A DNA stretch of 64,000 nt from Botryllus schlosseri (Eukaryota): positions 622,001 through 686,000 of the forward strand of contig CM119373.1 in the NCBI GenBank assembly GCA_051294905.1, in the 5' to 3' direction. The notes under the pieces were generated by a model that saw nothing but the letters and a program-made list of their open reading frames with translations, was not told where the DNA came from and ran no database searches. The position numbers and the translations under genes are program-made. Of this stretch, positions 1 through 54,888 are shown piece after piece. Each line of letters starts with the position of its first letter. Position 1 is the first letter of the stretch.

Positions 1-128
1 GACACCATCTTACACCGTAAAGCCCAGGCCCATAGTGCGACGGTAACCAATCTCCGACGAAGCTCTCTTAACCCTCATGCTTAACTAAACACAACTATAT
101 GAATTACAGATTTTCACGTTAAACTAAT

Positions 129-3100: not shown

Positions 3101-3272
3101 ATTGGTGGTAACAGGGTTGATAGCTCTGGTGATTGTGTTGTGGGTTGGTTGTATAAGATGTCGTCGGCGTAGAACCCTAAGTCATCTGAGGAACACGAGG
3201 AGGCGTAACGGAACAAGTCAATGGATGGCGATAAGGGTAATACGAAACACAGCAGAGGATAACGAGATTTGA
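129..3272 (+). CDS. Intronless 1047-aa type-I membrane glycoprotein; candidate env-like/viral glycoprotein of an LTR retroelement or endogenous virus
   Basis: Long uninterrupted ORF, visibly more GC-rich than flanks. N-terminal hydrophobic stretch (LQRLLLLIPWACFV), Cys-containing ectodomain, KKRRSR polybasic site (~aa 234-239), many N-X-S/T sequons, Ser/Thr/Pro-rich region (~aa 590-950), TM helix VVVILVVTGLIALVIVLWVGCI then RCRRRR. The env identity is inference; no family motif recognised. Confidence 0.7.
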   Translation: MPIINYLYKWKGLQRLLLLIPWACFVKTQTGENLLPLSAMTVGSVDDFNFTGWILFDVPPKPQRVPLSRLFILGGDWPRRDIRRHYQIQVDDSAFGPLKAAPQSLYKLLTPISSIGSQNARYWNETWAYERECVCRRTESWISPDLNPADYYTQKIKYRRDGRLGVIHLWRYVETRVLHSLPLETLQRLTVYKTMIINLLEQYETVEANCRYQFGRHIGWDIGQNRFSHCVAHKKRRSRVMCIECYFMGEQPVENFLPLDFVIQEVDPGIIGNPPDKRRTFSSNQWPDRAPLPKISENLVWLQARNETYSEHWHVMFDGRKTDTAFLRTMAKPQPSGMAMYDSYPVLLHNRSRCGLKENRQVCSTAVGDLKTALLFNRVLFDPFEGQAVFADPRQGAMQIAAPENRTRTEILLPTLGNQTSCLISKGWETFILSPSRETPDGNGRGGIKTWLSRLGVQYAEETKKHLSQLKVRIRGGVETQRERPVSRGQLEELSVRYNLTLRPTLVEQVKLLNTILLDYMATQKLIQAEVGDEKLFQSRWIYRGTFCEGSLVYTPYAYRNNAGERSTARTVILTATDDRGNHHARITWTPEVPQTTSMMVGSTNTEALGNGRGVTPSEKRKPTNNRSTPSPAWEMLTTATEAMSLPRFPPAHQEVMRREKELASQNKSAEAIITRRMTHETTTQTKIIDQRLVETDWSGFAGTTVSYQVSSDRHVDGNTTPEASRTAYVTTSPLPNTTETSETPRDQEGDVAPLVTVERLTTTVPKTTALRHLPSLTLGWRMKTTLVQAWRSQSMAKKRGKNDNAIPTYSTHWKQQLPTNPRNLPERTTKISGEVSTTTRVHPITTADALQDSREDDGTDIGTDYQSPDHNRKVSTGTTALYSTGDDKDDSSPRSVELMNTTLESTMTDASPPPGQKKRSLGTPAPEYSRISRTTAGKTTTDFVDYNYTRWLHELVMMEGGYKVRELSLIDRVIMEGAKLIPIMEPVVVILVVTGLIALVIVLWVGCIRCRRRRTLSHLRNTRRRNGTSQWMAIRVIRNTAEDNEI

Positions 3273-7231: not shown

Positions 7232-7902
7232 TCATTCATTTTTGTCGCATGCGCCAGTCCAAGTATCAGTAACTCCGTGATTAGTGACGATTGAATTGTC
7301 GCGATCGAAAGTCACGTCTGCATCGCTTGGACAGTGGCAACCATTTGATTCGTACATTTCAAGTATTTCCGTCGCATTCAAAGCCCTCTTCCAAATGATA
7401 AAACCTTCTATTTCTCCGTGAAAGCCTTCATCTGAAAACATTTGTTTACCCGGACTGGTTCCGCTGATTGGGCCGTATTGTGAGTGACCCAAGATTAGTA
7501 CGCCATTACGTGGGACGGGATCAAGATTTTGAACTGTGGTGGATGGTAGAGATGAGCCGTTAACGAAAGTATCTGTCGATGATGCTGACTTCACTATGCA
7601 CAAATGTGACCGGGTTGTTATGGAGTTCATCATCGCAGTGAAGTGTTTTCTACTCTCGAATCTGACTTTAATGGACGGCGAATATTTATTAATCTCCACG
7701 TTAAAGGTTTCGCACTCTGTTGAGCTTGAAATACTAGTCAACGCGCAGTAACTGAGCAACGTTCCGCCCACTTGCTTTCCTTCCGTTGTAGGGCGAACCC
7801 AAGCGCATGCCGTTAATGACTTCATCTCCGAAACCATGCCTCCATACTGAACATATACGCTGTGGTCTTCACTCGGGAATACGAAGTGAGATGTGTTGCA
7901 CG
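7232..7902 (-). CDS. Pentraxin-domain terminal exon, copy A
   Basis: Acceptor ttcag at 7903-7907, phase 1. Motifs MKSLTACAWVRP, GTLLSYCA, SHLCIV, FVNG, GVLILGHSQY, FHGEIEGFIIWKRAL match the pentraxin/LamG fold. TGA at 7232-7234. Confidence 0.9.
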
Positions 7903-8012
7903 CTGAAAGCAACAAGTCAACAATATACTTGCAAATCAATCCCTATCAAAGGTAAGGAAGCCAGAATTTTGATTTCCTAAAATCTTAAGGTGGGTTTGTC
8001 AATCAATGATTA

Positions 8013-9748: not shown

Positions 9749-9969
9749 AAAATACACCAACCAAAACTCTGTCAACAAAAGGAGTTCGTGTACTACCTAA
9801 AAATAGTACATTGAACGCTCTATCTTTCATGCTGGTGACGTCATATTTTGTGATACGATTGTTGATATACAATGTTCTTTCCAATTCTCTACTAGTTTCG
9901 GACGATTACCCCTGACGAGTGTCAGCCGAAAATATTCGGGTTCATTTCAATATGAATATACTATTCAAT
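9749..9969 (+). mobile_element. Penelope-like retroelement 3' fragment (pseudo-LTR)
   Basis: 12-bp duplication tatattatattc (9737-9748, 9970-9981); empty site ~46430-46445. Encodes the GIY-YIG C-terminal end (CQQKEFVYYLKIV) and contains a hammerhead motif. Confidence 0.8.
9908..9941 (+). ncRNA. Minimal type-I hammerhead ribozyme motif
   Basis: ACCC-CUGACGA-G(UGUCAGC)C-GAAA-AUAU-UC-GGGU: full core, stem I ACCC/GGGU, 1-bp stem III with palindromic AUAU loop. Predicted cleavage after C9937. Confidence 0.75.
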
Positions 9970-16205: not shown

Positions 16206-16278
16206 TTGAAGTACAGGCAACTGTCACAAGCAATGCAGTCAAACACAAAGTTGTCGAGAGGAGTGGAAACACGACCAT
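16206..16278 (-). CDS. Signal-peptide first coding exon, copy A (MVVFPLLSTTLCLTALLVTVACTS)
   Basis: ATG at 16278, hydrophobic 24 codons, phase-1 gtgagt donor; paralogue at 52371-52443. A minimal spliced model with the 3' exons gives 314 aa in frame. Confidence 0.75.
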
Positions 16279-18523: not shown

Positions 18524-18731
18524 AATTGAATAGTATATTCATATTGAAATGAACCCGAATATTTTCGGCTGACACTCGTCAGGAGTAATCGTCATGCTGG
18601 TGACGTCATATTTTGTGATACGATTGTTGATATACAATGTTCTTTCCAATTCTCTACTAGTTGCTGACGATTACCCCTGACGAGTGTAAGCCGAAAATAT
18701 TCGGGTTCATTTCAATATGAATATACTGTTC
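18524..18731. mobile_element. Penelope-like pseudo-LTR fragment with inverted partial copy; two hammerhead motifs (minus 18553-18586, plus 18673-18706)
   Basis: 18524-18593 is the reverse complement of the 3' part of 18593-18731; flanking duplication aaaatgtgttttg; both cores CUGACGA...GAAA...UC intact. Confidence 0.8.
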
Positions 18732-20885
18732 AAAATGTGTTTTGTGTTATAGCCTACTGCCTTTACTTATATACACTCGGGATCGTGATCGTATAGTGCT
18801 CGCATGTTATCATTAGGCCTACAATTATCATACATCAACGACAGTGGCGCTTATCGCCTGTTTAGGCCTTTTGCACCACGGCAATGCATTTGTAAAGTTC
18901 AGTGTCTTTGCTTTTGTACATCGAGGACGACTTTCATGCTCGCGCACATCCACTCTTCCATTCGCTCTCGTTTACATGCGTCCTCTTGCTGGTCTCTGCT
19001 GCAGAATTTGGAGCTCGGTTCACTCTTCCTCTGGGCTTTTTCAAGACGCTGCGTTAACAGCGAGGTCGGCGATGGTGCTCGCATATATTCTGTTGCCGAT
19101 TCTAAATATAGGTACATTGGATTCTTGCAGAACGTTCATCGTACGTGCATTGGCGTAGCCAGGAGGGGGCAAAAGTGGCCATGGCCCCTCCCAAATATTT
19201 CGAAATTTTTCGTAAACTAGTACATGGTGGAGTATATTTTCGCAGATGTATTCAACTTGAAATTTTTTTCTTGTTACGTCCTTGCGTCCGTGTTTTCTGT
19301 TTTAGGAAGACCTAGAGCGCAGCAAGTTCCATTATATTCACCAAATCTAATCGGGAAAGAATTACAATGAATTATATCCCGAATTGCATTTGGGTATAGG
19401 CAGGCCTACTAAACGCTAATGTCACTTTATCTTCTGGAGTAATACTCACACATCGATGAATTGTCAGTCCGAACAATCACGCGAAATTAATTTGTTGGCG
19501 TGCTGCATTTGAATTTGCCATATTCAACTTGCTCACCCCACAATTTCCAGCGGCCGTTGATGTAACTTCTGCTGCAAAATTGGCCTGTAATTTGCGGGAT
19601 TGTTGCGTTAGCGCAAGTGCTTTCCAAACAAAAATACGTAAGCTGTGACGCTCTGTATTCAAGATCGAAGCTATCGGTGGAGACAGACTCTATCTTGGAG
19701 TGACATGTTTTGGAATGATTTATCGTGTTACTTTTTAGCGGCGATAGCATCCATCTGTATTTATGCAACTTATAACTAGCAGAAATATTGAAAACCCGTA
19801 AGCTAGAACCACGCAGTTTCAGAGCTTCGTATCGAAATGAGAAGATTGGATTATGAAGACAGATTGTCACGGTGTCCTCCCTGCTTACCATCCAGGCAAA
19901 GTCACAATTTGCGTATAAATGAAGAACTATAGTATTCACCAACTATACTCACCTGAAGAACAGGTAACTGTCACAAGTAGAGCCCGACCGATTATCGGCT
20001 CGCCGATAATATCGAGTCGATATCACGCTTGGAGAGAAATATCGGTATCGGCCATTGAAGGTAAAAAAATATCGGCCATTTTCGTGACGTCACAACATGG
20101 TGGCAGGGAGTCAAAGAAGTCGATAGAAGACGTCAGAACGGTAAATTATAAAAATAAATGGCCAAGCTGCATATAGTGCATACTGCATACAGGGCAGTAG
20201 GCGTGTGCCAATCTGAAAAATATTAAAAATAACTAACCACCGTTATGCCCCACTGACTTCGTGGGAATCCTCCTGCAGTGATCGATCACCAAAGGCAAAG
20301 TCACTCAACTTCAATCGTGCTGGACTGACCCTCGTGATGATAGAGAAAGCGTCGCGTCGAAACAAATCTCTGAAGATAGTGCTATTGGTTCGGTACCAAC
20401 AGAGCTATAATTATACCAGTGATGCATGAAGTCGTCTGACCGAGGCCTGCGGGGCCACCATGATAGGAAATATGCGAGCATAGAGGGGAAGAAAATCAAG
20501 CAAACGTGGAGTAAAGTCAATAATTGATACGAAAATTTTTGATTCCGTGATGACATTGGCCAATTCTGACAAAAAGGCGTAAAATATTGATCAATTGATT
20601 GTTCAAATGCTGGTCATGGCTCATGGTCAACCCAATGCCCAAGGGGGATGGGTGGAGCAGTTGCAGACGTGGACAATTTGAGTTGTTTGCACATTCTATT
20701 CAGCTATTTGTTAATGATGTGCTGAAGGCTCCAGGTGCACTGCCAAAATAATATCAATATTAATATCAATATTTGGTGAAACCATTGAAGGAAAGATCCC
20801 CTGCAAGGGAGCGGTGGAACTGAAATGGTGAAAGATTTCCAATTCTTGCTGTGCCACTAATTATGGTACCAAGTGAAAGACTGCT

Positions 20886-23800
20886 CACTGTGTTTAGTAC
20901 TATAAGTAGTATGATTAGCTGGGTTTCGTGCAGGCCAATCAGAGAGCGCCACGTCATCCTAATTGCCACGCCCATTTTCATACCCTAAGGGTACATTCAT
21001 CTGCTACGTCATGTGTGCCACATCATCAAGCGCCACGCCTATAGTGCCACATCATCCATCCATTGCAATATCATCGCTGCATTGATTGCCGCATCTTGAT
21101 ACTTTTCTCAGATATTGTATTATGTGTATTTAGGACAAATATCATCCGTCCATATGTTTTAAACTTGATTTTATGTGTACAAGTTACGGTTTCTGCAGTT
21201 TCCACATTTTACGACTTATGATTGCCGCGTCAAAACATACCTTAGCTAGAATCGACAGATTTTCTTTATGTGTATTTAAGACTATGTATTTAAATTCCTA
21301 TTCAGATTATACGTAAATGCGAGAAATATGATGTCTATGCAAGGCTATATTCTCCGGATAATATTATTAATATCAAAATTCTACACATCATCACTAATTA
21401 CTTAATATAAAATGCGATTTTGAGCGCTGCGACTTGATAATATGAATCCCTACGCTTCTGATGCATGATTTTTTGTGATAAGGACCTAGGTAACATTCAG
21501 AGTCTACAACGATTGTTTGGATATACATTATAGCAATACCCCACTAAACTATAGGCGGTTATATTACTCTATTGGTCAGAGATAACTCATCCGTCCATAT
21601 TTTTAAACTTGATTTTATGTATACAAGTTACGCTCTCTGCAGCCTCCACATTTTACGACTTATTTTCATTAGACGCAGGCAAGCGATTCTCCAGTTCGGA
21701 GGTACGGAAACAAATCACTCGCATGTGCGCGTTCCGAACAGTCTTGTAGAATTTTCTAAAGTCGTAACAGCTTATAGTAGCATATACGCGAATCCCAAGG
21801 TGAAAATAATCGAACGAACTATAGCCGTAGGCGTGCGATTCGCAGGGCTTTATTTATACAAACACTTTCGATGCCTGTACGCGAACCCCAGCGTTATAAC
21901 GATTAGGTCTAATTAGCACGTTCTGAAGCCGTAAATTTAGTCAACATCATTGAGATAGCCATGATTTAAATATGGTGATCGAGTGTGACAATAGCACTCG
22001 TCAAGGTTAGACAAACATAACCTTAAACTACTATCTACTTCACAAAATATAAAGTTGTAAAAGTAAGCAGATTTCTATGAAAACCTGTTAAATAGAAGTA
22101 AAAGTAGCCTAGAAACATAACTACTTACCGAAAAATCGTTACGTAGAAGTGGGGTTAGTCTACGAACATAACCACTTACTTACTTTGAAATCTCTACTTG
22201 TACTTGTATTCGAGCGGAATTGCATCTATCATGTGTATTTAGGGCTAATGCGACATCACTATGTTGACGACAGGGCTGATTTGAACACACAAATTTTGCG
22301 AATTAAACTTATCGCTCACCACGGACACTCAATGAAGAGCACCCTGGAGCACCCACAAAAATGCTCTACAATTCTTGACATATAATATACTGAGCATATA
22401 ATAAGCTGACAAAACTTATTGCCGTGCGACCGATGCATTAATGACTTTAATACTCTGTATTTTAAATTATCACACCTATGAGTCGAAATGTTGTTAAGTA
22501 ACTCATGTTTTCAACATAACCTAAACGTAAAGTGCACGAATTTCCATGTTGATCAAATACCAAAAACTTTGCTTGCTTTCAAAGTTAGTACCTAAGCGCA
22601 TAACAGAATTTACCCAAAAAAGTCGGTACTCCGAAAATTTTGTGAAGTAGAGCCTTTTGGTGTTGGACTTAAGTTCCAATGAACAAGTGTTCACGTGAGT
22701 TCGAATCCCAAACCCTGTACGTTATATTTGAGTCAAAAAAGTTATTCATACTCATGATTCGAGATGTTAAGTAACTCATGTTTTCAACATAATGTAAGCG
22801 CGAAGTACGCAAAATTAGATAACATACAAATACCACAAATTGCGCTAGCTTTCAGAGTTGATAAGTTTAACTCTTTTAACAAAGTTGTATGTGCGCAATA
22901 TATATTTATCGTAAGTCCTGCACGTTCATGATTTCGTCCGAGTTTGAGTTGTAGAAAATATTATACCAACATCGCGACATCTTTCAAAAACAAAACCACG
23001 GTCACTGCTTGAGAGACCTATTAATGTCATCCCAATAATTTAGTTACTTCCACAAAATAGTAGATACGTATTTGACTTACGTTTCACAAAGCTAACACGC
23101 ACACAATTTACTTTAGTAACGAAAAGTGGTGAGATATCGAAAGATTTCTCCTTACATCAAAACAACTAGAATGTGGAACTATATTAAAAACGTTCCTAAC
23201 CCTTTGCACACCGCTGATAAATCGCACAAGCAACAAGTTTAGAGAATCGATATATACATAGTCAATTTTCATAATAGAATTAGCATGCTAAACATTAAAT
23301 ACTCACCTTGAAAGTTGGTACGCAGTTGTAGGCCATATTAACAATGCACCATACCAAATTTCGTCACACATTTCATGATGTAACACCTTTGGAACTAACG
23401 CAGCTTTCTACAGACTTTAGCATGAATCTGTTTTTCGGTAGCGTAGCAGGTACCTATACATAGTAAGCTTTAATAACGGAATTATCATGCTAATAATCAA
23501 ATTCCCACCCTGAATCTTGGTACGCAGTTGTAGGATAATATGAAAATGCACCACTCTAAATTTCGTCACACATTTTATGATAGTTGTAGGACATTGTGAT
23601 TATGCAGCATACCAAATATCGTCACACATTTCATGATGGAATAACTTTAAATCTAACGCAGTTCTATACCAACTTCGCGTAAATCTGTTTTTCGGTAGCG
23701 CGTACCTATGCATAGTCAGCTTTAATAACGGAATTATCATGTCAATATGTGACTCCTCAACTTGAAACCTGGTACGTAGTTGCAGGATTTGGTGATTATG

Positions 23801-26800
23801 TAGCATGTCAAATTTCGTCACACATTTGATGATGGAACAACTTTAAAACTAACGCGGCTCTACATCGATTTTTTGCGTACATCTGTTTTGCGGGAGCGTA
23901 TAGCACGTACCCATACATAGTCAACAATAATAATGGAATTGCCATGCTTAGCATAGAATACCAACTCGAAACTTGATACGTAGTTGTAGGACATTATGGC
24001 AATGCACTATGCTAAATTTCATCAAACATCTAATGATGAAACACCTTTAAAACTAACGCAGTCGAATACCGACTTTTATGCATATCGGTTTTGCATGAAC
24101 ATAGCATATACCTATACATAGTCAATTTTAATAACAGAATTAGCATGCTAAACATTAAATTCTCACCTTGAAGGACATAATGACAATACACCATACCAAA
24201 TTTGATCACACATTTCATGATGTAACTCCTTTAAAACTAACGCAGTTCTCTACACACTTTTGCGTGAATCTGTTTGTCGGTAGCGTAGCACATACCTATA
24301 CATAGTACGCTTTTAACGGAATTACCATGCTAATAATCAAATCCCGACCCTTAAACTTGGTACGCAGTTTTAGGACATTATGAAAATACACCATACCAAA
24401 TTTCGTCGGACATTTCATGATGTAACACCTTTAAAACCAACTCAGTTCTATACCGACTTTTGACTAAATCTGTTTTTCCGTTGCGCAGCACGTACCTACA
24501 CATAGTATACACACTCAACTATAATAACGGAATCACCATGTTAATAATCGACTCCCCACCTTGAAACTAGGTACGCAGTTGTAAGACATTATGACAATGC
24601 ACCATGTCAAATTTTGTTACGCATTTCATGATTGAACAGCTTTAAAACTAACACAGTTCTATACCGACATTTGCGTAAATCTGTTTGGCGGGAGCGTAGC
24701 ACGTATTTGTGCATAGTCAACTTTAATAACGGAATTACAATGCTAAACATTGAATGCGTAACTTGAAAACTGGTTCACGGGTGTAGGACATTATGACAAT
24801 GGAACATATTAAATTTCATCACACATTTCATGATGGAACACCTTTAATTGAAGCCTACGGAACTCTGCAAATTGTTTCGATTTATTCTGCCCGTTTTAAT
24901 TTAAGATAAGGAAGCCCATTTTACTCAATGTATCGATGCGTACGTTACTCTACAAATTTTTCTGATTAATTCTCCCTATGTTAATTTATCATAAGAAAGA
25001 TGATTTGACTCCTAAAGTACGAAATACTTGCTCGCTTGAGCTAAGCCGCAGCGCTTGGAGTGGAATTTTACGAAGTATGTGGACGCATTTCAAAGGAGCA
25101 TACTTTACGCTCTAATTCGATTCCCACACATTCCATATAATTACTAACTGAACCATTGAGTACCAGCCTTGAAATTTTGCGTAGTACTAGCTGGCATGTA
25201 TACAATTTCATGGCACCCGACAGTACGACGGAGACTATCAAAATATCGAAAGAAGTTCTCTATTCTTTTCTGAAATAATCAAGGTTTCATCAGGACTTCC
25301 CTTCATATAAACTCCAGCAGAATCATTATTAACCCCTCAAGTTTACTCAATTTACTCGAATTTGATACTCGAGTACTAAATCCCTATTTTCCGCAAGTAT
25401 GATAGTGGCTATCGCACGATACTCAACGATTCGTAATTTTGCTGGAATACAAGTACAATTAGGGATTTAAAAGTAACTAATATAGGTGGTTATGTTTGTA
25501 GGTTATTTACACGTATAGTGATCGGTCTTTCAGGACAAACTACCTACTTTTAGGACTTCATATTTTAAAGTAGTTTGAGGTTACGTTTGTATCACCTTGA
25601 CAAGTGCTATGATTATGCTGCATACCAAATTTCATCACACATTTCATGATGGAACAACTTTAAAACTAACGCAGTTCTATAGCAACTTTTGCCTAAATCT
25701 GTTTTCGGTAGCTTGTACATATACATAGTCAGATTTAATAACAGAATTATCATGCTAATATGTGACTCCTCACCTTGAAACTTGGTACGTAGTTGTAGGA
25801 CATTGTGATTATGCAGCATACCAAATTTCCTCACGCATTTCATAATGGAACAACTTTAAAACTAATGCGGTTCTACATCGACTTTTTGCGTACATCTGTT
25901 TTGCGTGGGGGGCGTATAGCACGTACCTCTACATAGTCAACTTTAACAACGGAATTACCATGCTTAACATCGAATCCCAACTCGAAACTTGATACGTAGT
26001 TGTAGGACATTATGGCAATGCACCATGCTAAATTTCATCACACATCTAATGATGGAACACCTTTAAAACTAACGCAGTCGAATACCGACTTTTACGCATA
26101 TCTGTTTTGCGTGAACATAGCATATTACGAATCGTTGAGTATCGTGCGATAGCCACTATCATACTTGCGGAAAATAGGGATTTAGTACTCGAGTATCAAA
26201 TTCGAGTAAATTGAGTAAACTTGAGGGGTTAATAATGATTCTGCTGGAGTTTATATGAAGGGAAGTCCTGATGAAACCTTGATTATTTCAGAAAAGAATA
26301 GAGAACTTCTTTCGATATTTTGATAGTCTCCGTCGTACTGTCGGGTGCCATGAAATTGTATACATGCCAGCTAGTACTACGCAAAATTTCAAGGCTGGTA
26401 CTCAATGGTTCAGTTAGTAATTATATGGAATGTGTGGGAATCGAATTAGAGCGTAAAGTATGCTCCTTTGAAATGCGTCCACATACTTCGTAAAATTCCA
26501 CTCCAAGCGCTGCGGCTTAGCTCAAGCGAGCAAGTATTTCGTACTTTAGGAGTCAAATCATCTTTCTTATGATAAATTAACATAGGGAGAATTAATCAGA
26601 AAAATTTGTAGAGTAACGTACGCATCGATACATTGAGTAAAATGGGCTTCCTTATCTTAAATTAAAACGGGCAGAATAAATCGAAACAATTTGCAGAGTT
26701 CCGTAGGCTTCAATTAAAGGTGTTCCATCATGAAATGTGTGATGAAATTTAATATGTTCCATTGTCATAATGTCCTACACCCGTGAACCAGTTTTCAAGT

Positions 26801-29800
26801 TACGCATTCAATGTTTAGCATTGTAATTCCGTTATTAAAGTTGACTATGCACAGGTACGTGCTACGCTCCCGCCAAACAGATTTACGCAAATGTCGGTAT
26901 AGAACTGTGTTAGTTTTAAAGTTGTTCAATCATGAAATGCGTAACAAAATTTGACATGGTGCATTGTCATAATGTCTTACAACTGCGTACCTAGTTTCAA
27001 GGTGGGGAGTCGATTATTAACATGGTGATTCCGTTATTATAGTTGAGTGTGTATACTATGTGTAGGTACGTGCTGCGCAACGGAAAAACAGATTTAGTCA
27101 AAAGTCGGTATAGAACTGAGTTGGTTTTAAAGGTGTTACATCATGAAATGTCCGACGAAATTTGGTATGGTGTATTTTCATAATGTCCTAAAACTGCGTA
27201 CCAAGTTTAAGGGTCGGGATTTGATTATTAGCATGGTAATTCCGTTAAAAGCGTACTATGTATAGGTATGTGCTACGCTACCGACAAACAGATTCACGCA
27301 AAAGTGTGTAGAGAACTGCGTTAGTTTTAAAGGAGTTACATCATGAAATGTGTGATCAAATTTGGTATGGTGTATTGTCATTATGTCCTTCAAGGTGAGA
27401 ATTTAATGTTTAGCATGCTAATTCTGTTATTAAAATTGACTATGTATAGGTATATGCTATGTTCATGCAAAACCGATATGCATAAAAGTCGGTATTCGAC
27501 TGCGTTAGTTTTAAAGGTGTTTCATCATTAGATGTTTGATGAAATTTAGCATAGTGCATTGCCATAATGTCCTACAACTACGTATCAAGTTTCGAGTTGG
27601 TATTCTATGCTAAGCATGGCAATTCCATTATTATTGTTGACTATGTATGGGTACGTGCTATACGCTCCCGCAAAACAGATGTACGCAAAAAATCGATGTA
27701 GAGCCGCGTTAGTTTTAAAGTTGTTCCATCATCAAATGTGTGACGAAATTTGACATGCTACATAATCACCAAATCCTGCAACTACGTACCAGGTTTCAAG
27801 TTGAAGAGTCACATATTGACATGATAATTCCGTTATTAAAGCTGACTATGTATAGGTACGCGCTACCGAAAAACAGATTTACGCGAAGTTGGTATAGAAC
27901 TGCGTTAGATTTAAAGTTATTCCATCATGAAATGTGTGACGATATTTGGTATGCTGCATAATCACAATGTCCTACAACTATCATAAAATGTGTGACGAAA
28001 TTTAGAGTGGTGCATTTTCATATTATCCTACAACTGCGTACCAAGATTCAGGGTGGGAATTTGATTATTAGCATGATAATTCCGTTATTAAAGCTTACTA
28101 TGTATAGGTACCTGCTACGCTACCGAAAAACAGATTCATGCTAAAGTCTGTAGAAAGCTGCGTTAGTTCCAAAGGTGTTACATCATGAAATGTGTGACGA
28201 AATTTGGTATGGTGCATTGTTAATATGGCCTACAACTGCGTACCAACTTTCAAGGTGAGTATTTAATGTTTAGCATGCTAATTCTATTATGAAAATTGAC
28301 TATGTATATATCGATTCTCTAAACTTGTTGCTTGTGCGATTTATCAGCGGTGTGCAAAGGGTTAGGAGCGTTTTTAATATAGTTCCACATTCTAGTTGTT
28401 TTGATGTAAGGAGAAATCTTTCGATATCTCACCACTTTTCGTTACTAAAGTAAATTGTGTGCGTGTTAGCTTTGTGAAACGTAAGTCAAATACGTATCTA
28501 CTATTTTGTGGAAGTAACTAAATTATTGGGATGACATTAATAGGTCTCTCAAGCAGTGACCGTGGTTTTGTTTTTGAAAGATGTCGCGATGTTGGTATAA
28601 TATTTTCTACAACTCAAACTCGGACGAAATCATGAACGTACAGGACTTACGATAAACATATATTGCGCACATACAACTTTGTTAAAAGAGTTAAACTTAT
28701 CAACTCTGAAAGCTAGCGCAATTTGTGGTATTTGTATGTTATCTAATTTTGCGTACTTCGCGCTTACATTATGTTGAAAACATGAGTTACTTAACATCTC
28801 GAATCATGAGTATGAATAACTTTTTTGACTCAAATATAACGTACAGGGTTTGGGATTCGAACTCACGTGAACACTTGTTCATTGGAACTTAAGTCCAACA
28901 CCAAAAGGCTCTACTTCACAAAATTTTCGGAGTACCGACTTTTTTGGGTAAATTCTGTTATGCGCTTAGGTACTAACTTTGAAAGCAAGCAAAGTTTTTG
29001 GTATTTGATCAACATGGAAATTCGTGCACTTTACGTTTAGGTTATGTTGAAAACATGAGTTACTTAACAACATTTCGACTCATAGGTGTGATAATTTAAA
29101 ATACAGAGTATTAAAGTCATTAATGCATCGGTCGCACGGCAATAAGTTTTGTCAGCTTATTATATGCTCAGTATATTATATGTCAAGAATTGTAGAGCAT
29201 TTTTGTGGGTGCTCCAGGGTGCTCTTCATTGAGTGTCCGTGGTGAGCGATAAGTTTAATTCGCAAAATTTGTGTGTTCAAATCAGCCCTGTCGTCAACAT
29301 AGTGATGTCGCATTAGCCCTAAATACACATGATAGATGCAATTCCGCTCGAATACAAGTACAAGTAGAGATTTCAAAGTAAGTAAGTGGTTATGTTCGTA
29401 GACTAACCCCACTTCTACGTAACGATTTTTCGGTAAGTAGTTATGTTTCTAGGCTACTTTTACTTCTATTTAACAGGTTTTCATAGAAATCTGCTTACTT
29501 TTACAACTTTATATTTTGTGAAGTAGATAGTAGTTTAAGGTTATGTTTGTCTAACCTTGACGAGTGCTATTGTCACACTCGATCACCATATTTAAATCAT
29601 GGCTATCTCAATGATGTTGACTAAATTTACGGCTTCAGATCGTGCTAATTAGACCTAATCGTTATAACGCTGGGGTTCGCGTACAGGCATCGAAAGTGTT
29701 TGTATAAATAAAGCCCTGCGAATCGCACGCCTACGGCTATAGTTCGTTCGATTATTTTCACCTTGGGATTCGCGTATATGCTACTATAAGCTGTTACGAC

Positions 29801-30579
29801 TTTAGAAAATTCTACAAGACTGTTCGGAACGCGCACATGCGAGTGATTTGTTTCCGTACCTCCGAACTGGAGAATCGCTTGCCTGCGTCTAATGAAAATA
29901 AGTCGTAAAATGTGGAGGCTGCAGAGAGCGTAACTTGTATACATAAAATCAAGTTTAAAAATATGGACGGATGAGTTATCTCTGACCAATAGAGTAATAT
30001 AACCGCCTATAGTTTAGTGGGGTATTGCTATAATGTATATCCAAACAATCGTTGTAGACTCTGAATGTTACCTAGGTCCTTATCACAAAAAATCATGCAT
30101 CAGAAGCGTAGGGATTCATATTATCAAGTCGCAGCGCTCAAAATCGCATTTTATATTAAGTAATTAGTGATGATGTGTAGAATTTTGATATTAATAATAT
30201 TATCCGGAGAATATAGCCTTGCATAGACATCATATTTCTCGCATTTACGTATAATCTGAATAGGAATTTAAATACATAGTCTTAAATACACATAAAGAAA
30301 ATCTGTCGATTCTAGCTAAGGTATGTTTTGACGCGGCAATCATAAGTCGTAAAATGTGGAAACTGCAGAAACCGTAACTTGTACACATAAAATCAAGTTT
30401 AAAACATATGGACGGATGATATTTGTCCTAAATACACATAATACAATATCTGAGAAAAGTATCAAGATGCGGCAATCAATGCAGCGATGATATTGCAATG
30501 GATGGATGATGTGGCACTATAGGCGTGGCGCTTGATGATGTGGCACACATGACGTAGCAGATGAATGTACCCTTCAGTG
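20886..30579. mobile_element. Giant palindromic (foldback-like) non-autonomous element with CACTG...CAGTG ends and 2-bp TSD (EnSpm/CACTA-like)
   Basis: TSD ct (20884-20885, 30580-30581); removing it restores host codons gaa aga ctg ctc agt gct (ERLLSA). Arms 20987-25437 and 26124-30574 are reverse complements with constant coordinate sum 51561. Confidence 0.85.
23250..24850. repeat. Diverged ~200-bp tandem repeat array (mirrored at ~26710-28310; further units ~25600-26123)
   Basis: Anchor aaattt(c)gtcacacatttcatgatg recurs at ~23356, 23558, 23614, 23810, 24014, 24197, 24397, 24609, 24811. Confidence 0.9.
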
Positions 30580-31141
30580 CTCAGTGCTCACCTGCTCAAG
30601 CTAAATCGGTAGAGTTCGGAATATTACAAAGTTTGTAGTACAAAGGCGGTACGAACACGAACCAAGCAAACTTTTCCTGTGGATCAGCAAGCTTAGTGGC
30701 ATCACCAATATGTTACATATACAGGCCTATGCCTTTACGATCTAGACTTGGCCTGAGATCATCAGTTCAAGAACTGGAAGGCGTGTCCAAGCCTAACTGG
30801 TGGAGTTCGCATTACAAACAGGCCATTGCACTGGTCAGTAGATAAACTGCCCAGTGACCTAATAATTCGATGTGATGCAATATAAATATTCATTGGACGT
30901 AAGACACTAATGTGCTTCCACTAATTATATTTTCAACAGCCTCTAATCCTTGGTTAGGTACACGAGTAAACAACACTTGTTATAGATCTAATGTGCTAAT
31001 TGTTAGTTGAAAAAATGCTAAATTCTGCTGTTAACCAACATGAATGTGTGCCAAAATTCCAATATTTTGCATTCAAACATGCCAAATGCCAACACTGGCA
31101 CCGGCCACTATCACCTACATTCCTACAAGGTCCGTATACAA

Positions 31142-32567
31142 CAGGGCCGGCCAACCTGTGGCCCGTGGGCCACGTGACCCCGCGAGAAGGTTTTGAGTAG
31201 CCCGCGAGGTCATTTCCGAAATTAGTAATATTATCAAAAATGGATTGCACAGATTGTGAACTTGCAAGGCCAACCAAAAATTTGATTAGTCTGGCCGCAA
31301 CACTTGAGATGTGATGACTAAAATATCAGTTCCGACGCATTGGCAGATCCATGAGCCAGTTACATTTTGGTAGATCTTCGTACACCACAATAAAGCAGAA
31401 TAATTTGCGATAGATTTATCAAAAGTAAAAATTTTCTATACACGCTTCGCGCAACATGTTGTCACTCGATTTCTTGCTTTTAATATGATTTCACCTTTGT
31501 GAAAATGAAAGAACGCCTAATGCAGCGGTTCTCAACCGGGGGTCCGTGAAGCATTTTCAGGGGGTCCGCGAAGCCTCTAAATTTGTAAAATGATCCGACA
31601 AGCTACTTTTTATTTATTTATTTTCAATTAGGAAAAGCATGAGCCGGTATCGCTTTACAATTGCTCAAACTTTAGGACTCACAGCATTGAAATGGTCGCC
31701 TGAGATGAAATGTCCGAATGTGCAAACTCATTACAATTGTCAAATTACCAATAGCCTGCTGATGCAAACATATTGCAGTTTAGATATGTTTTGTTGGGGT
31801 TTGTCAAAAAATGAAATGTTGAAGACTTTCTCCTGTGATAAATCAACTAAAAAACTTCAATATGAGATGCTAGATGGAAAGTACTAGGCTGGACGTGATA
31901 TGTTCATTATTAACTCACAACAACAGCTGTAGTCGGAAGCGTTACGCATTACGACATTCGACAATACTTCTTTGTGGAAATGGATTTTCAAGACAATAAA
32001 CACAGCTGAATAATTCCCTTCGAACTAATAAAAGTCTACCCAATTTCCACATATAGTGTGCAGTTATTTCTAAGAAAAGTCATTTTGTGGCTATTTATCG
32101 CTAGCCTCCTATTAATATTCGCACAAGACAGATGACGGTTGCACGATAAATGAGCTAATTTTGAACAAAAACTTGAGGGGGTCCGCGAACACAAAAAGGT
32201 TAAGAACCACTGGCCTAATGTATCAGATTGAGTCTAACCATATTCGCGATTACGAGACAAAGTGTTGTCGCTCAACATATATGCGACCTTGCGTTTGCGC
32301 TCGCAGAAAAGCCGTCGACTATGAAACCTAGGCACAAAATGATTGATGCATGTTGGTCGAAACTTTCGATATCTACATGCAGGCGACGAATAGTCCATTC
32401 CTTGCAAACTGAGCCCAGCGATATACAGCAGGCCAGCAATATCGCCAAGTGAAAATATTATTGACCTATGAACTTCGAAACATTTTCGCGCTTAGCGTGG
32501 CTAGTGGCCCGCGCAATAGTTCGTCAATCAAATGTTGCCCTTTGGCTGAAAATGTTGGCCACCCCTG
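31142..32567. mobile_element. hAT MITE containing nested MITE 31523-32212
   Basis: Ends cagggccggccaac/gttggccacccctg; TSD gtatacaa/gtatacag. Confidence 0.85.
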
Positions 32568-32869
32568 GTATACAGTATAAATAAACGCTGGATGTTTCCG
32601 AGCAATTGATATCGATTCCACTCCTTCTTTTTTCCATGCAGTGACGTAATCGTCTCGCGCGGAAATATTCTCTCAAACTTTGCAATATACACGCATCGGG
32701 AGCGTTTCTCACTTGTGAACTAGAAAAGCCTAGCTACCAGCAACTTTTTAGAATTGCTTCCAAAAGACAAAATTTACGGGTTCACTGTACTTAATATCGT
32801 GTTAAGTTTATTTGAATTATTCCACGTCGGAAAAAGTGAGAAACATGGACAATTTTCATTCGCTCTCAT

Positions 32870-33000
32870 CCGGATTTTTCATTCGCACCATTCGCACCAC
32901 CCTTGCCGTTCGCACTCATCCGGGTTTTTCATTCGCACCATTCGCACCATTCGCACCACGCTTGCCATTCGCACTGAAACTTTTTTCATTCGCACCAGTG
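32870..33000 (+). repeat. Short tandem cattcgcac repeats inside the hAT element
   Basis: Repeated ttttcattcgcaccattcgcaccac units. Confidence 0.85.
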
Positions 33001-34242
33001 CGAACCGTCACACAGGTTGAAAAGCACTGCCCTAGATCATTTATTTTATGTTCAAGCATATCAATGGCTGTAAAGTTGTTGAAATAAATGCTCTGATGTG
33101 TTAAATATGGGCCTTGAGCTAGATTCCATATATTTTGAATATCGGCTGAATATATCGGGGTTATCGGTGGAGGTACTGGATATCGGTCTTATCGGTATCG
33201 GCTCAGAAATCCAATATCGGTCGGGCTCTAGTCACAAGCAACGCAGTCAAATACAAAGTTGTCGGAGGAGTGGAAACACGACCATCCTGTTTGACTTACA
33301 GCAATCAGTATAAATCTACCTTAATACAGCATGCCGGGGTAAACGAGGAAGTTGAGTCTGTGGATAGGTGTTTTTAAATATGAAGCGCGATGTGCCTGGG
33401 CATGAGTTGACTAACTTTTGCTTAGTATGCTTAGTATTTGAGAATTAACGTGTGTACCTTTTGAGCTGTTAATCATAAACTGATCTTTATCGCTATATTA
33501 AACATACAGCACGTTTAATTACGTTGGGAAGTCCACTACCCCTCTGCGCTGCGAATCTGCGTGCTAAATGTGTACAGGGATAAGTTCCATTAATTAAATC
33601 ATGCATCACAATGTGCAGGTATAAATTTATAGAAACGCCTTTGAAGCCCAAAGTAACGAAATATAGTCTTGAAACACGCTACGTTTTTCTCCTTAGATGT
33701 TATAGCTCACTCGCTTTATATCGTTTTCTCAATCTAATAGTGTTGCAGCTGCGGATCGTACCACTACGCTATCTCGCCAGCTCAATGCAGGTGCTATCTG
33801 CAGTACTGAACAACCGTGTCATTTTTCATTTATTACGGTACATAACTCCCAAATATACGGAAAAGTGAATGCGCCACATAGTATTCAGTGACTGAAATAT
33901 AATTACCCATATATTCATATATAGGAATTTTGAAAAGCGTCAAAACGTTATTTTGTAACTATGTTATATGTATACATATCAGCAAACATGAACTGAAAAT
34001 TCAATATGTAAATTGGTTTCCTAGTCAACAAGCTCACCAACTGATCAGTATGAGGTCGATTCCCACACCGAGGACAAAACCAACAATATGGCCCATATCA
34101 TAATCATAAACTCGCTATTGCAGTACAGAGATGAAATTCTTGTTCACATAATGATGATTGACTATTCATTTTATATAAATATAGATTAAAATTAGAGTTA
34201 AATTTTCATCGAATACATTCATACATATTCATAATAAGCCAA

Positions 34243-36544: not shown

Positions 36545-37208
36545 TCATTTATTTTTGTCGCATGCGTTAGTCCAAGTATAAGCAACTCCATGATCAGGGA
36601 CGATTGAATTGTTGCGATCGAAAGTCACGACTGCATCGCTTGGACAGTAGCAACCGTCAGATTCGTACATTCCAAATATTTCCGTATACTTCAAAGCCCT
36701 CGCCCATATGGTAAACTTTCTATTTCTCCGTGGAAGCCGTCGTCCGGAAACATTTCTTTACCTGGACTTGTTTCGCTGATTGGACCGTCTTGTGAGTGAC
36801 CCAAGATCAGCACGCCATCACCTGGGACGGGATCAGGATTTTGAACTGTAGTGGATGGAAGAGCTGAGCCGTTAATGTAAATAGCCGTCGATGATGTTGT
36901 CTTAACTATGCACAAATGTGACCGGGTTGCTATGGGAGTGTTCATCGCAGTGAAATGACTTTTACTCTCGAATTTCATAGCAATAGCCGACGGATGAATC
37001 TTCACGTGGACGGTTTGGCACTCTGCTGAACTTGGAATAGTCGTCAAAGCGCAGTAGCTGAGCAACGTTCCGGCCACAGGCTCTTTGTCAGGTGCAGGAC
37101 GAACCCAAGCGCATGCCGTGAATGACTTCATCTCTGGAACCACGCCTCCATACTGAACATAGTCGTGGTGTTCTTTACTCGGGAATAGGAAGTGAGATGT
37201 GTTGCACG
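36545..37208 (-). pseudogene. Pentraxin terminal exon, copy B, with 1-nt frameshift (or sequencing error)
   Basis: Same motifs as A/C; aaa at 36713-36715 versus aaaa in A and C. The downstream frame is otherwise open to TGA at 36545-36547. Confidence 0.8.
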
Positions 37209-38115
37209 CTGAAAGCAACAAAGTCAACAATATACTTGAAAATCTGTCCCTATCAAAGGTAGGGACGACAGAATTTTGATTTCCTAAAATCCTAAGGTGG
37301 GTTTGCCAATCAATTATTATTATCAGATGGTCGTCAACTTGTAAGCTCCATGAAACGCAAGTCGTGTCAAACCCTTTCTAATCGGCCGGCCTACTGACCA
37401 AAATTTTACTGCATCCACAAAAAAGACGATAAAATGTCATCCATATGGTTTAAATCGACGCCCAATATATTGCCGTAAACCTTAAGTAGCCGCCGAGCGG
37501 TCTAAGATACTCCTACGGCTCAGACGCCAGAGGGAATAGCGGTGTGCGATGAAATGTTCTCGATTTCTTGAAAATAAAATACAATTTTGTTCTTCTATAT
37601 CTTCTGACGTCATACTTAGGCCCTCTCTTGGTATATGACCACCTGATTGCGTTTCGCATGAATCTCTACGTTCCAACGAGACATTACACAATACTATATC
37701 GCTTCATAGCCCAGCGCTACGATCTTGGAAAGGTAGACATGATAAGCACGGATCACGCGGCCGCCGACGATGAGTAGGCCTAATCGATTACGTAATCGCG
37801 TAATCTCGTGGAAGGCAATTCACTTCCAATTCTACATAACATAGTAACTATTTTATATATCTCCATGCTATTGAAGTGGCGTAAACCCCAGTGGCTTGTT
37901 ATATGTAACTTGCAACTGCATAACGAATTCGTAAGTATACACATATTGGCTTATTCGACACTGCCCAGTGCCCATATACGCTCGAGAAGTCATTTCATGT
38001 GATACATTATTGCTTTATTTCACATCAATTTGAACTGTATTCTACACGGCTAGTGTTCCATGTATGATCAACAGTAGTCATAGAAGCCAACAGTAACTTC
38101 GTGTGCCATCTAAAC

Positions 38116-46396: not shown

Positions 46397-49305
46397 CTAA
46401 TATAAGTGTGTCGGTTAAGATGACTCAGCCTTTATCATATTCGAGTAATGCTTTGGAAATTATTTTCATTATCTACGGACTTGGACATTGCGATACCATA
46501 CTTCGCTGCATTTTCAGTTGATTCGATTGCTAACGTTGCTTTCCAGTACGTGAGGGATTTAGTCATTATTTTCGTGAGTAATCCTAACCATGATTATGGC
46601 ATCACGTTTTGTGGCCATGCTGAGGGTGAAACTCGGAACTACTGTTAATATTCGGAGCGTTGGATCAAATGTTTAGGAAGACATAATATGCCCAATCGAG
46701 GTTTAAAGTTTTCGCGGTGGCAAACACGATCGAAAGTATATATATGCGCTCTGTGTAATCGACGATGTGTCTTTAGTAAAATTGTTGTTACATAATAAGA
46801 GCTGGATAATAAGAAAATTTTCAGCCGTTCCAAGTTACATCAGAATTCAAATGATAGCTGAACATTTTTCAAATTAGATTAGAATTAAAGCTACACATTT
46901 TTTTTTAGACTTCATACTCATAAGTATGAGAATAGCAAATGTATGTGGAGCAAGCAGGTATTGTTTGGCAATAAACAGTTTTCCTGCAGCATTATTGGGG
47001 AAGCAGTGATTAGATTAGAATTAAATTTTGTGAGCGAAGTAGCAGTTCACAAATTAGATTATAATTAGATTACGGGAATTCCCCTCTAATTAGCCTAATT
47101 AGACAACTAGAATTATCTGGTTGCCGCATTATCACATTTCAAGGACAAGAGGACCGTGCCGATATCGGTGACCAAATCATCGTCACTTTTAATTTCATTT
47201 CTCAGACATGTACCTGAGTTGCGTCTCCATCTACATGTCGCAGACTCGCAGTACCTGCGTACTCGCACTTTTAAAATCAAGTTGTGAATCGGATTTGATG
47301 GTGACAAACCAATCACTTTAGAATCTGGCGGCTTATTCAAGGAAAACTAAAATCTAATTTAGCGCAATATTACCTGACTGTGTGACTTCAACACGTTCTT
47401 TTTCCGCCCGTCTTTTCAAGTCGCTCATAATGGTTTCGAGAGATGTGCCGTCCTGCAAAATACGCAACATATTCATTATTCACGGATATGCGCGTGAAAT
47501 ACGCTATAGTTGGCATACGGCACAATGCATAAATGTAGCCTAGTGTTGTTATGATCGTGAATTTACGGTGGTATCGTTTCACTCTGATTTGTGTATAGGA
47601 CTAGAATGAGTGCCTATCATTATTTCCTGGTGTGCTTTGTTTTGTATTAATACAACGTGAATTGTGTTATACTGCCTTTGTTTATCTACACTCAGGATAT
47701 TGATTGTATATTGCTCGCATGTATTCAAGTAATCATGTTGCCGATACTTAATACATTAGATCGAGAGTGGCCTGCGGCCGTAGAAGGAAATTTGTGCAGC
47801 CGTCAACATGCAAATTTACTTTACGAATTGACTCTTACGAATTGAGAGATTTTAATTAATCTTGAATTTTTCTTCGCGCTACATGCGATTCTATGTGTAT
47901 TCAATTTTCAATTTTATTGTAGAAGGGCCATGTGCAATCTGAACCCCGCAGTACAGATGCGATCAGCAGAGGAAAATGATACGCCACATATACAAATACG
48001 AACTGGGAATCTTGTATTCCTGCTTATCATGAAAGAAACTCGTTTGTAATGCGTTTGGGCGATTCCAATATCTTTCCGCACAATACCGACAATTCTGATG
48101 CGTGGTCAAGAAATAACAGCAATAAAGTTACTAATAACTGTTGGCCCAACCGAAGATGTATCATCAATTCATCATTATAACTTGCCTAAATTTTCGAACA
48201 CAGTCCCTCCATCAACTCTACGGAATAACCTGATCACAATGGGCTGAGAAAGGATAATATTTAATGGTTGTATGTGATCATTCCGGAGTTCCGCGTGAAT
48301 ATACATGGAATGTTTAACTATAAGGTCCTATATATGGTGTGGACACAAGCAAATCTCACGGCTCAGTCAAATCGGTCGATATCACACTTTCCGTTTAGTA
48401 AAAGGCAATTTGACGGTGATTTTTGACCGGATTGCTGAGCATTAAATTTGATAAAACGGGAATCAATCGAAAGCTACCGCGGCTCTGGAGCAAGCTCACA
48501 CGAGCGTGAGAGTGTGAATGCTCAATCGGCTGCGCAACAATGGCTAATATGCTCCCCTGGTCACAGGCGGCATGGTTGCGTCACAATACCAAACTCCGTT
48601 ACAACGCAACATTCGAGACTGATTTCGGGGACTTCCAGGACCACGAACAGAATGAAATTTATATTTCCGTCACGGGCCCCCGCGGATCCCGCCGAATTTA
48701 CTTCAAATTTAGCTTGATTATCGTGCAACCGTCGTATGTCTCGTGCAAATATTAAGTAATAAACAGCAACAAGATGGTCTTTTTTGTAAATAACATCATA
48801 CTATATGCAGAAATTGGGCAGACTATTATTATTTCAAAGCGAATTCTGCAGCTGTATTTATTGAAATATGTGGCAGTGCATTGAAAATCTGCACGTTCGA
48901 TTTGATATGAACGAGTGCCGAAAATCCATTACCATGAAGATAGGTGGTGGCGAACGACGAACGTAATAATAACCCGTAACGCTTCCGATGACATCTTGGA
49001 GTATGATAGCAACATACATGGCAACTTATCACGTCTAGCCTTGTCATTTCTATCCAGCAGCTCATTTTGAGGTTATTCGGGAATAGTGGTTACATGTAGG
49101 CTATATCAAGAGAGAAAATGGTTTCAATCGCTTTATTCGGGCAGATTACGAAACAAAATTCATAATTCCGATTTCAAACGACTGATTATTCATTTGCTGA
49201 GACTGATAAATCCAAATGCAAACTATTTTGCAAACATTTCTAATTCTGATTGACTTTACTACTCCAACTTTTTTAAACATTCTACAATCCTAACTAAGAT
49301 CTGCT

Positions 49306-50476
49306 TTTTTCCTCATTTATATTAACGACATTGTTAATGCATCTTTATTCCGCACAACGCTATTTGCTGATGATACTCACCTCTTCATAACCTCCAACAC
49401 TGTCGATGATTTGCATGCATCTGTGAATAGGGAACTCCCAAAAGTGTCGAGATGGCTGCAAGCAAACAAACTAAGTTTGAATGCAGATAAGACCGAGACG
49501 CTCGTTTTAAATAATGCCAGTCATAATTTCACTGTGAACATCAATCATAAACAAATCTCAATATGTGACTCAGCAAAATATCTCGGCGTCACCATTGATT
49601 CGAAATTGTCTTGGAAGCAGCATATTGAATGCACAATATCAAAACTAGCTCGGTGTGTGGGAATAATGACCCGTCTCCAATCTTTGGTTTCCAGATCAGT
49701 ACTACGAACCATCTACTTCTCTCTTTTCCACTCGCATCTGCAGTATGGAATCGTAGTATGGGGAAATGCATGTACAACATTTTTGTGCAGAATTCGAACC
49801 CTGCAAAACCGTGCGATACGGCTGATCTCATCTGTACCTTTACGTACCAATTTATCGCCTTACTACCGTAAGCATCGAATTTTGCGAGTTGATGAACTGT
49901 ATCGCTTCGAAGTATCAAAAGTTGTTCACAAATATTTTTCCAATAGTCTGCCTCTTGTGTTTGATGACTTTTTCATACCTGCTAAACATGTCCATTCCCA
50001 TTACACGAGATCTTCGTCTAAAAGAAACGTCTACTTACCCCAACCCAATAGCAACCTAACTAAGAGATCTATCGACTACTCGGGACCTATCATCTGGAAT
50101 GCATTACCATCACATATCCGTAAATTGCCTTATAATAGATTCAAAAAAGCCCTACTTGATCACCTCTTGTCGTTACACTAACACTGTTGCCCTACCTCGC
50201 CCAGACATTGCTTCATTGATCATTTGCTACCATTGTTTAATTTTTTTTCTATTTTTCTTTCTCAACTAAATATTTTTTACAGCCAGACTGTTCTGAGTCA
50301 AGTGTACCTGTTTGATGCTGGTGTGATCAGACTAGATGACCTTCATGGTCTTATCGATCATTCCTATCTAATACCGAATACTGTGCACGCATATTTTCTG
50401 TACCACCATCACTGCCGTTTGTTATGTATTTTGGTTCGATGAAAATAAAGACTCTCTCTCTCTCTCTCTCTCTCTC
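49306..50476 (+). mobile_element. 5'-truncated CR1/L2-group LINE: reverse transcriptase C-terminal part, 3' UTR and (CT)n tail
   Basis: Frame open 49306-50181: FLIYINDI..LFADDT..LSLNADKT..KYLGVTIDSKLSW. aataaa then (ct)n; TSD tctgct; empty site at ~14344. Confidence 0.95.
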
Positions 50477-52370: not shown

Positions 52371-52443
52371 TTGAAGTACAGGTAACTGTCACAAGCAACG
52401 CAGTCAAATACCAAGTGGTCGAGAGGAGTGGAAACACGGCCAT
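52371..52443 (-). CDS. Signal-peptide exon, copy B (MAVFPLLSTTWYLTALLVTVTCTS)
   Basis: ATG 52443, phase-1 gtgagt donor; paralogue of 16206-16278. Confidence 0.75.
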
Positions 52444-54217: not shown

Positions 54218-54888
54218 TCATTCATTTTTGTCGCATACGCCAGTCCAAGTATAAGTAACTGCATGACCACTGACGATTGAATTGTTGCGATCGTAAGTCA
54301 CGACTGCATCGCTTGGACAGTAGCAACCGTCAGATTCGTACATCCCAAGTATTTCCGTAGAATTCAAAGCCCTCCTCCAAATCGTAAAACTTTCTATTTC
54401 TCCGCGGAAGCCATCGCCTTTAAACTTTTGTTCACCCGGACTTGTTCCGCTGATTGAACCGTATTGCGCTTGACCCAAGATCAGAACGCCATCACCTGGG
54501 ACGGGTTCAGGATTTTGAGCAATAGTGGATGGAAGGAGTGAGCCGTTAACGTAAGTAGCTGTCGATGACTCTGACTTCACGATGCACAAATGTGACCGGG
54601 TTGTTATGGGTTTGTTCATCTTAGTGAAATGTTTTTTCTTCCCTAAATGCATTTTAAGCGCTGACTGCTGCCTATCAATTTTCACGTCGACTGTTTGGCA
54701 CTCATTCTGACTTTCAACGCTCGTCGATGCGCAGTAACTGAACATCCTTCCGGTCACAGGCTCTGTTTCCGTCGCAGGGCGAACCCAAGCGCATGCCGTG
54801 AGTGACTTCATGTCTGGAACGATACCTCCATACTGGATATAGTCGCTGTGATCTTCACTTGGGAATAGGAAGTGAGAAGTGCTGCAGG
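54218..54888 (-). CDS. Pentraxin-domain terminal exon, copy C
   Basis: ttcag acceptor, same 671-nt length as A, intact. Motifs LTACAWVRP, SHLCIV, YVNG, GVLILGQAQY, FRGEIESFTIWRRAL. Confidence 0.9.

Follow-up and report, generated by a model that had tools for sequence, protein, structure and literature searches.

This locus lies in a 64,000-nucleotide stretch of Botryllus schlosseri DNA (the window; GenBank assembly GCA_051294905.1, contig CM119373.1, positions 622,001 to 686,000) and consists of a large palindrome inserted in a decayed transposon. The outer element, at 19978-33230, is a non-autonomous hAT-type element of a high-copy family, bounded by identical 15-bp terminal inverted repeats (TIRs; TAGAGCCCGACCGAT) and by an 8-bp target duplication (GTCACAAG) at 19970-19977 and 33231-33238. 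Paralogous segments at 16223-16230 and 52388-52395 are empty at the host site, and their homology to the window resumes at 33231. The palindromic insertion occupies 20905-30574 (9670 bp), and 92% of its length is paired. An earlier note, made from the letters alone, had set the element in a candidate immune gene cluster; three pentraxin-domain exons near the element were confirmed, while the insertion itself falls within no recognisable exon. The same note had described a foldback-shaped, non-coding mobile element, either young or homogenised between its arms and lodged in hAT sequence, and our analysis supports that description. In short, the structure is real, and the ends and the superfamily that had been assigned to it are wrong. 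The one end that survives likely marks the element as a damaged, helper-dependent offshoot of the virus-like Maverick/Polinton elements.

Limits of the insertion

Four of 24 listed public runs were compared with positions 19600-26123, namely the contig sets X1 (possibly the sample from which the window came), X5 and X6, and the bulk RNA run X23. The host hAT element has other copies, which agree with the window past the letters CACTG and diverge from it exactly behind 20904, in at least 40 contigs of X1, at least 5 contigs of X5 and at least 91 reads of X23, and all contigs and reads that leave the window there share one continuation. Each of the X23 reads in question has 150 letters, of which a median of 58 are loose, and the reads therefore reach into host DNA upstream of 20886. 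Among the 24 of 1448 loose ends that were listed there was no breakpoint at 20885/6 or at 20986/7 and no AGTAGT end joined to other flanks; the 6 of these that come from X6 show no divergence behind 20904. RNA depth in X23 drops from ~160 to ~11 across the junction, where the window reads VPSERLLTVFSTI. Since the host family matches the window through 20904, CACTG is host DNA and the foreign DNA starts at 20905. The 19 bp at 20886-20904 (forward strand) that had been taken for a CACTG terminus of the insertion are hAT sequence, with loose ends behind 20904 in X1, X5 and X23. Likewise, the motif VPSERLLSA, which was said to be restored in the host upon removal of the element together with one CT, loses its support, since CACTG is part of the host family, whose match to the window extends to 20904. 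A check of the reading across this junction against relatives of the host transposase yielded no candidate; two that were considered were dropped as spurious frames derived from repeats. A 27-aa fragment of the host had no Pfam match, and the host reading presumably resembles the C-terminal motif of hAT transposases, a likeness that we do not count as proof.

The surviving left end of the insertion (20905-20986, forward strand) comprises 82 bp and has no partner on the right side. It opens with AGTAGT at 20905-20910, a hexamer with 19 occurrences in the 64,000 positions of the window (~3 in 10,000 per site), followed by CCAATCA and GCCAC-type motifs. Such motifs reappear within the first 75 bp of the adjoining arm. 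Two of the GCCAC-type motifs shared by the end and the arm start have a single further occurrence each elsewhere in the window, which indicates that the end and the arm belong together. Directly before AGTAGT stands ACTATA (20899-20904), which would represent a 6-bp target duplication on the left side; its right-hand counterpart is absent, as are the junction on that side and the continuation of the host.

On the right side, the arm terminates at the position that matches 20987, and CAGTGCT follows twice (at 30575 and 30582). The right arm is thus 82 bp short, and no ACTACT-type right terminus, (ACT)2, is present. No reverse-complement copy of the missing 82 bp occurs in 30575-64000, and the host family's continuation behind 20904 was not found in the window when as many as 3 mismatches per 20 letters were allowed. 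The window therefore lacks the outermost 82 bp of this arm as well as the hAT sequence expected after 20904, both probably lost by deletion. The right arm is abutted by a likely remnant of a hAT-type MITE at 30575-33029, the right end of which reads CAGTGCTTTTCAACC inward, and the CAGTGCT at 30575 equals the first 7 letters of the MITE end at 33029. This remnant has no clean 8-bp duplication on its flanks; it is likely a MITE bordering a deletion and the source of the CAGTG that had been read as the right terminus of the palindrome. Two further MITEs are nested within it, at 31142-32567 (target duplication 7/8) and 31523-32212 (8/8). The window as a whole abounds in CAG-ended MITEs.

Structure of the palindrome and its repeat family

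Self-alignment of the window returned one ungapped inverted pair, formed by a left arm at 20987-25437 (forward strand) and a right arm at 26124-30574 (reverse strand, its end incomplete by the 82 bp). The element is thus a palindrome of two non-coding arms of 4451 bp, which differ by 9 substitutions (99.8% identity). These arms, free of indels and with only a handful of substitutions, had been correctly located from the letters alone, as had a spacer of 686 bp, which lies at 25438-26123. One of the two mismatches given as examples, 21921/29640, was also correct, while the other, 23711/27850, should read 23710/27851. The left arm contains a tandem array (23255-24847, forward strand) of ~200-bp units, six of them near full length and three partial, with its mirror counterpart at 26714-28306 in the right arm. 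Both parts of the spacer are derived from arm-type sequence. The first, of ~175 bp, is an old inverted copy (~70-85%) of arm positions 21990-22221 (alignment score 107; the best of 200 shuffles reached 32); the second consists of 2.5 array units in the orientation of the left arm, 89.6% like 23597-24109. The spacer meets the right arm with an overlap of 2-3 bp. An older inverted duplication held in the arm shows that fold-backs had happened previously in the element's repeat family. Predicted folding of the palindrome centre gave the expected stem only, its z of -9.6 stemming from the arm ends that were included.

Arms and spacer are made of sequences from a repeat family that is high in copy number and variable in structure. 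Depth in X1, X5 and X6 was 2.4, 108.7 and 0 in a bin of unique flank, and 8,764-277,031, 4,860-117,725 and 4-527 over the element, figures that do not represent copy numbers. Joints and loose ends in the public data show many rearranged forms of the family (e.g., 22104 joined to 24178, 22220 to 22425 and 21970 to 26030). Other copies diverge from the window behind 25605-25610, which is compatible with a central deletion in the window copy.

We examined the best-supported 40 of 485 variant sites, a selection that over-represents sites at which the window copy differs from nearly all others. Thirty-one of them lie in the arm, and at 30 of these 31 both arms share one letter where the public contigs mostly have another. 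The other letter reaches at least 90% in X1, X5 and X6 alike at 24 of the 30 concordant sites, 14 of which lie outside the array. At the sole discordant site, 22904, the family letter is found in the right arm and not in the left. The two arms thus share letters that are rare in the family and are far nearer to each other than to most of it, which indicates that, once the lineage had diverged, one arm served as the template for copying or correcting the other; it is likely, then, that the halves of the element were copied from each other. Pieces nearly identical to the arm were also found in X6 (332 bp with 1 difference and 202 bp with 2), in which the unique flank has a depth of zero. Part of the seemingly private variation would therefore be common to a lineage, and this suggests that some of the letters shared by the arms mark a minority lineage of copies, not the window locus alone.

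The junction between left arm and spacer is crossed by one X6 contig with 30 letters and by one X5 contig with 25, the threshold of the tool being 31. A strand-changing joint at 26123/26124, a junction situated at the edge of the stretch compared, does not occur among the 15 of 172 joints listed, and one X6 contig continues from 26123 into another array unit. The fold-back junction between spacer and right arm is accordingly known from the window's assembly alone.

Coding capacity and transcripts

The element had been credited with no credible coding capacity, and this was borne out: its longest stop-to-stop frame, of 122 aa, was equalled in 22 of 200 shuffles, none of its 51 frames of at least 40 aa matched Pfam at E ≤ 0.01, and a search of Rfam gave 0 matches. 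The Maverick genes for protein-primed DNA polymerase (pPolB), integrase, capsid, ATPase and protease are thus not among these 51 frames by Pfam. Exact-motif scans returned 9 metagenome loci, 1 phage contig and 14 viral loci, with one scan returning 0; no match went past ~21 bp or corresponded to the element, and all are attributable to chance. An autonomous Maverick with the element's end was not found in three scans of viral contigs, which gave chance matches only.

The earlier note had also raised the prospect that the arms, if transcribed, would give a hairpin RNA of more than 4 kb. The RNA data come from the single bulk run X23, of which ~6/100 was used. Depth over arms and spacer was 0-10 reads per direction, compared with 38-86 over the host piece at 20254-20907, and it was the same in both directions; 95% of the reads continue into unlike sequence, and the locus from which they originate is not assignable. 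This run, with a depth that cannot be assigned to the locus, lends the hairpin RNA no support.

Origin of the palindrome

With long modular inverted arms, internal tandem repeats and no coding capacity, the element has the structure of a foldback. The commonest Maverick end in vertebrates is 5'-(AGT)2//(ACT)2-3', with 6-bp duplications (PMC8097293), and the genes of Mavericks include those for a protein-primed polymerase and for an integrase (PMC6431247). The element resembles them in the AGTAGT at its surviving end, in its long terminal inverted repeats and in its residence in an animal genome (PMC8097293; PMC6431247; PMC4028283; PMC3014272), and its total size, if whole, would be near the low end of their range. 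We consider it probable that the end is of the Maverick type, a point that the preferred reading and its closest rival have in common. The differences are considerable. Intact Mavericks of vertebrates have seven or eight genes, and their TIRs measure 46-1,447 bp (PMC8097293), whereas the element has arms of 4.5 kb, is 92% paired and possesses none of the polymerase, integrase, capsid, ATPase and protease genes; its second end and target duplication are lost. It is therefore Maverick-ended and not a demonstrated member of the group, given that one defining feature of the ends is found and the other, (ACT)2, is missing from the window copy.

We favor the view, with a probability of about 0.6, that the element is a helper-dependent palindromic derivative of a Maverick/Polinton that was later trimmed. 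The following steps can be envisaged. A Maverick-ended element would first have had one of its ends copied back onto itself, giving rise to the family. The resulting gene-less element would borrow polymerase and integrase from an intact Maverick. Protein-primed strand displacement, as in adenovirus, would free a single strand able to snap back into a panhandle of 4.5 kb, within which pairing over 92% of the length could permit either arm to be rewritten from the other. The helper's integrase would have inserted a copy after ACTATA in the hAT relic. Later deletions may then have taken out part of the centre and, on the right, the terminus and the target copy together with the middle of the host as far as the neighbouring hAT-type MITE; the window copy would now be immobile.

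The replication model for such a cycle is established in adenovirus, where the inverted ends of the displaced strand pair and the resulting panhandle serves as the template (PMC9863843). The analogy would extend to protein-primed strand displacement and to the annealing of the displaced strand by inverted ends; in contrast to adenovirus, with ITRs of ~100 bp and a gene-rich genome, the element would pair over nearly the whole molecule. Taken further, the family might be a polintovirus satellite of the snap-back kind: a gene-less palindrome spanning the whole molecule, replicated by the protein-primed polymerase of a Maverick in the form of a self-annealed panhandle, with arms that are rewritten from each other at every cycle, and amplified to high copy number. 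Such a satellite would be to DNA what copy-back defective genomes are elsewhere, and it would have become fixed in the germ line of an animal. We put this joint reading forward tentatively, and the odds are somewhat against it. A survey of the anole reports no non-autonomous Maverick copies (PMC3014272), and the Mavericks of C. elegans are described with 744-bp TIRs and TIR-only remnants (10.1101/2024.01.15.575659). In the literature that we searched by title and the start of the abstract, with thin coverage of subscription journals and Repbase reports, no gene-less palindromic Mavericks were described. The original Polinton paper of Kapitonov and Jurka from 2006 reportedly mentions non-autonomous forms.

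The copying of Mavericks has been inferred from their genes and from adenovirus, active elements have hardly been observed, and the matter has been named as an open experimental challenge (PMC4028283). If the preferred reading is true, a gene-less, Maverick-ended palindrome family would record how Mavericks copy, and the concordance of arms across many copies would test strand snap-back, mutual repair and the minimal end required in cis. Near-perfect palindromes of several kilobases are fragile. The window copy, with probable deletions at its centre and right end and a location inside a cluster of pentraxin-domain genes, is by itself a poor witness, since one of its ends is lost.

The rival closest to the helper-dependent palindrome is a single fold-back in place, which we regard as unlikely. 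Under this scenario, a non-palindromic Maverick-ended repeat was inserted, after which a break or template switch at 26123 led to 4451 bp being copied back and rejoined at 30575, while the remainder of the element and the central part of the host were lost at once. Its appeal lies in economy, for one event would cover the near-identical arms, their shared rare letters, the 82-bp shortfall, the missing host continuation and also the overlap of 2-3 bp at the spacer/right-arm junction. The lack of that junction among the 15 of 172 public joints listed suits it as well, and the arm-shared variants fit it just as they fit the preferred reading. It has difficulty, however, with the near-identical arm pieces in X6, where unique-flank depth is zero, and with the older inverted duplication in the arm, according to which fold-backs had already happened in the family.

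Improbable, in our estimation, is a foldback of another cut-and-paste superfamily (Mutator-, Tetris- or Galileo-like), the arms of which would have been lengthened and equalised through gap repair or conversion, with AGTAGT a coincidence. Tetris of Drosophila virilis has internal units of 220 bp and TIRs of up to 1,735 bp (PMC4079207), and Galileo has units of ~210 bp, TIRs of ~1,260 bp and inner DNA recruited into the TIRs (PMC3573991). Modular arms, ~200-bp tandem units and many rearranged forms do recall these elements, and Tetris and the 2-TIR copies of Galileo further resemble the element in being non-coding and in having inner DNA recruited into the inverted repeat. The element differs from both in having arms ~2.5-3.5 times longer (4.5 kb), in their 99.8% identity and in its Maverick-type end motif. 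Moreover, AGTAGT stands at an exact junction defined by reads, where chance would place it at the rate given above, and no 7-10 bp duplication, as a Mutator- or P-type transposase would leave, is visible, the right end being lost.

An artefact of assembly or of a fold-back read, such that the chromosome has one arm only, might be suspected from the near-identity of the arms and from the absence of the spacer/right-arm junction in independent data. It is very improbable. The arms differ at nine positions, with the right arm carrying the family letter at 22904 and the left arm not; the flanks are unmirrored; and both sides lie in a single host element, whose TIRs and target duplication match and beyond which the paralogous segment resumes at 33231. 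The integrity of the host, the unmirrored flanks and the nine differences together speak against a fold-back artefact.

The original proposal of an EnSpm/CACTA foldback derivative at 20886-30579, with CACTG ends and a CT duplication, has as little to commend it, being largely refuted by the host copies that carry 20886-20904 and depart from the window only behind 20904. Within the CMCT clade, duplications of 2-5 bp are general and CAC..GTG ends are typical of EnSpm (PMC12730594). The letters are indeed there, CT/CACTG at 20884-20890 and CAGTG/CT at 30575-30581, each near a boundary of the element and with CT beside it, but CACTG belongs to the host hAT family and CAGTGCT equals the end of the adjacent hAT-type MITE. 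The CT pair therefore borders host and MITE sequence, and the insertion, which begins 19 bp further in, has no CAC..GTG termini of its own. A variant in which the host family holds an older CACTG insertion, with 19 bp and 5 bp of it remaining, is barely conceivable, and the palindrome would still begin at 20905. That the CACTA call arose from letters of host and MITE is a practical lesson: the ends match over 5 bp only, and an inverted match of 5-8 bp with a 2-bp duplication within 150 bp occurred in 320 of 20,000 random pairs of places, or in 204 of 20,000 with the right end fixed (1.0-1.6%).

Rearranged forms of the palindrome family

The family of the palindrome's left arm and spacer (20987-26123) is a mosaic of rearranged forms. 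When public contigs were compared with this interval, the joints 22104>24178, 22220>22425 and 22472>22529 were each found in all three DNA runs (X1, X5 and X6). Other family copies in the public runs enter or leave the alignment at 22225, 23145, 24848 and 25610.

The element also contains an older inverted duplication, pairing 21990-22221 with 25435-25612 at about 70-85% identity. Its two halves flank the array of tandem ~200-bp units (23255-24847), and its inner end coincides with the boundary between left arm and spacer. This duplication may be the trace of a previous fold-back, or a nested element.

The host hAT family and the adjoining MITEs

The hAT-type element into which the palindrome inserted belongs to a high-copy family, as judged from the piece to the left of the insertion (19978-20904). 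The family is contained in the reads of the bulk RNA run X23, at a depth of 38-86 per direction over 20254-20907; within the window, the element overlaps no recognisable exon.

The palindrome's right arm is abutted by what is likely a three-deep nest of hAT-type MITEs (30575-33029). Both inner MITEs (31142-32567 and 31523-32212) have 8-bp targets with TA at the centre. The left end of the outer MITE is doubled and degenerate, and the same MITE carries a tandem block of CATTCGCAC at 32880-32997.

Pentraxin/LamG-domain exons and other open frames

Three paralogous pentraxin/LamG-domain exons lie on the minus strand within a tandem segmental array (7232-7942, 36548-37377 and 54218-55048), the middle copy having a frame change near 36700. 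A small upstream segment common to the array occurs three times (9827-9968, 18592-18733 and 56242-56378); its second occurrence is overlapped by a 208-bp imperfect self-inverted stretch (18526-18733, 79% in the window self-alignment).

A plus-strand frame of 295 aa (49294-50181), with a weak reverse-transcriptase match under the Pfam cut-off (E 2.5e-06), is likely a truncated LINE. A Pfam search with the 1049-aa plus-strand open frame at 123-3272 returned no match; its middle is Thr/Ser-rich and a hydrophobic stretch lies near its end.
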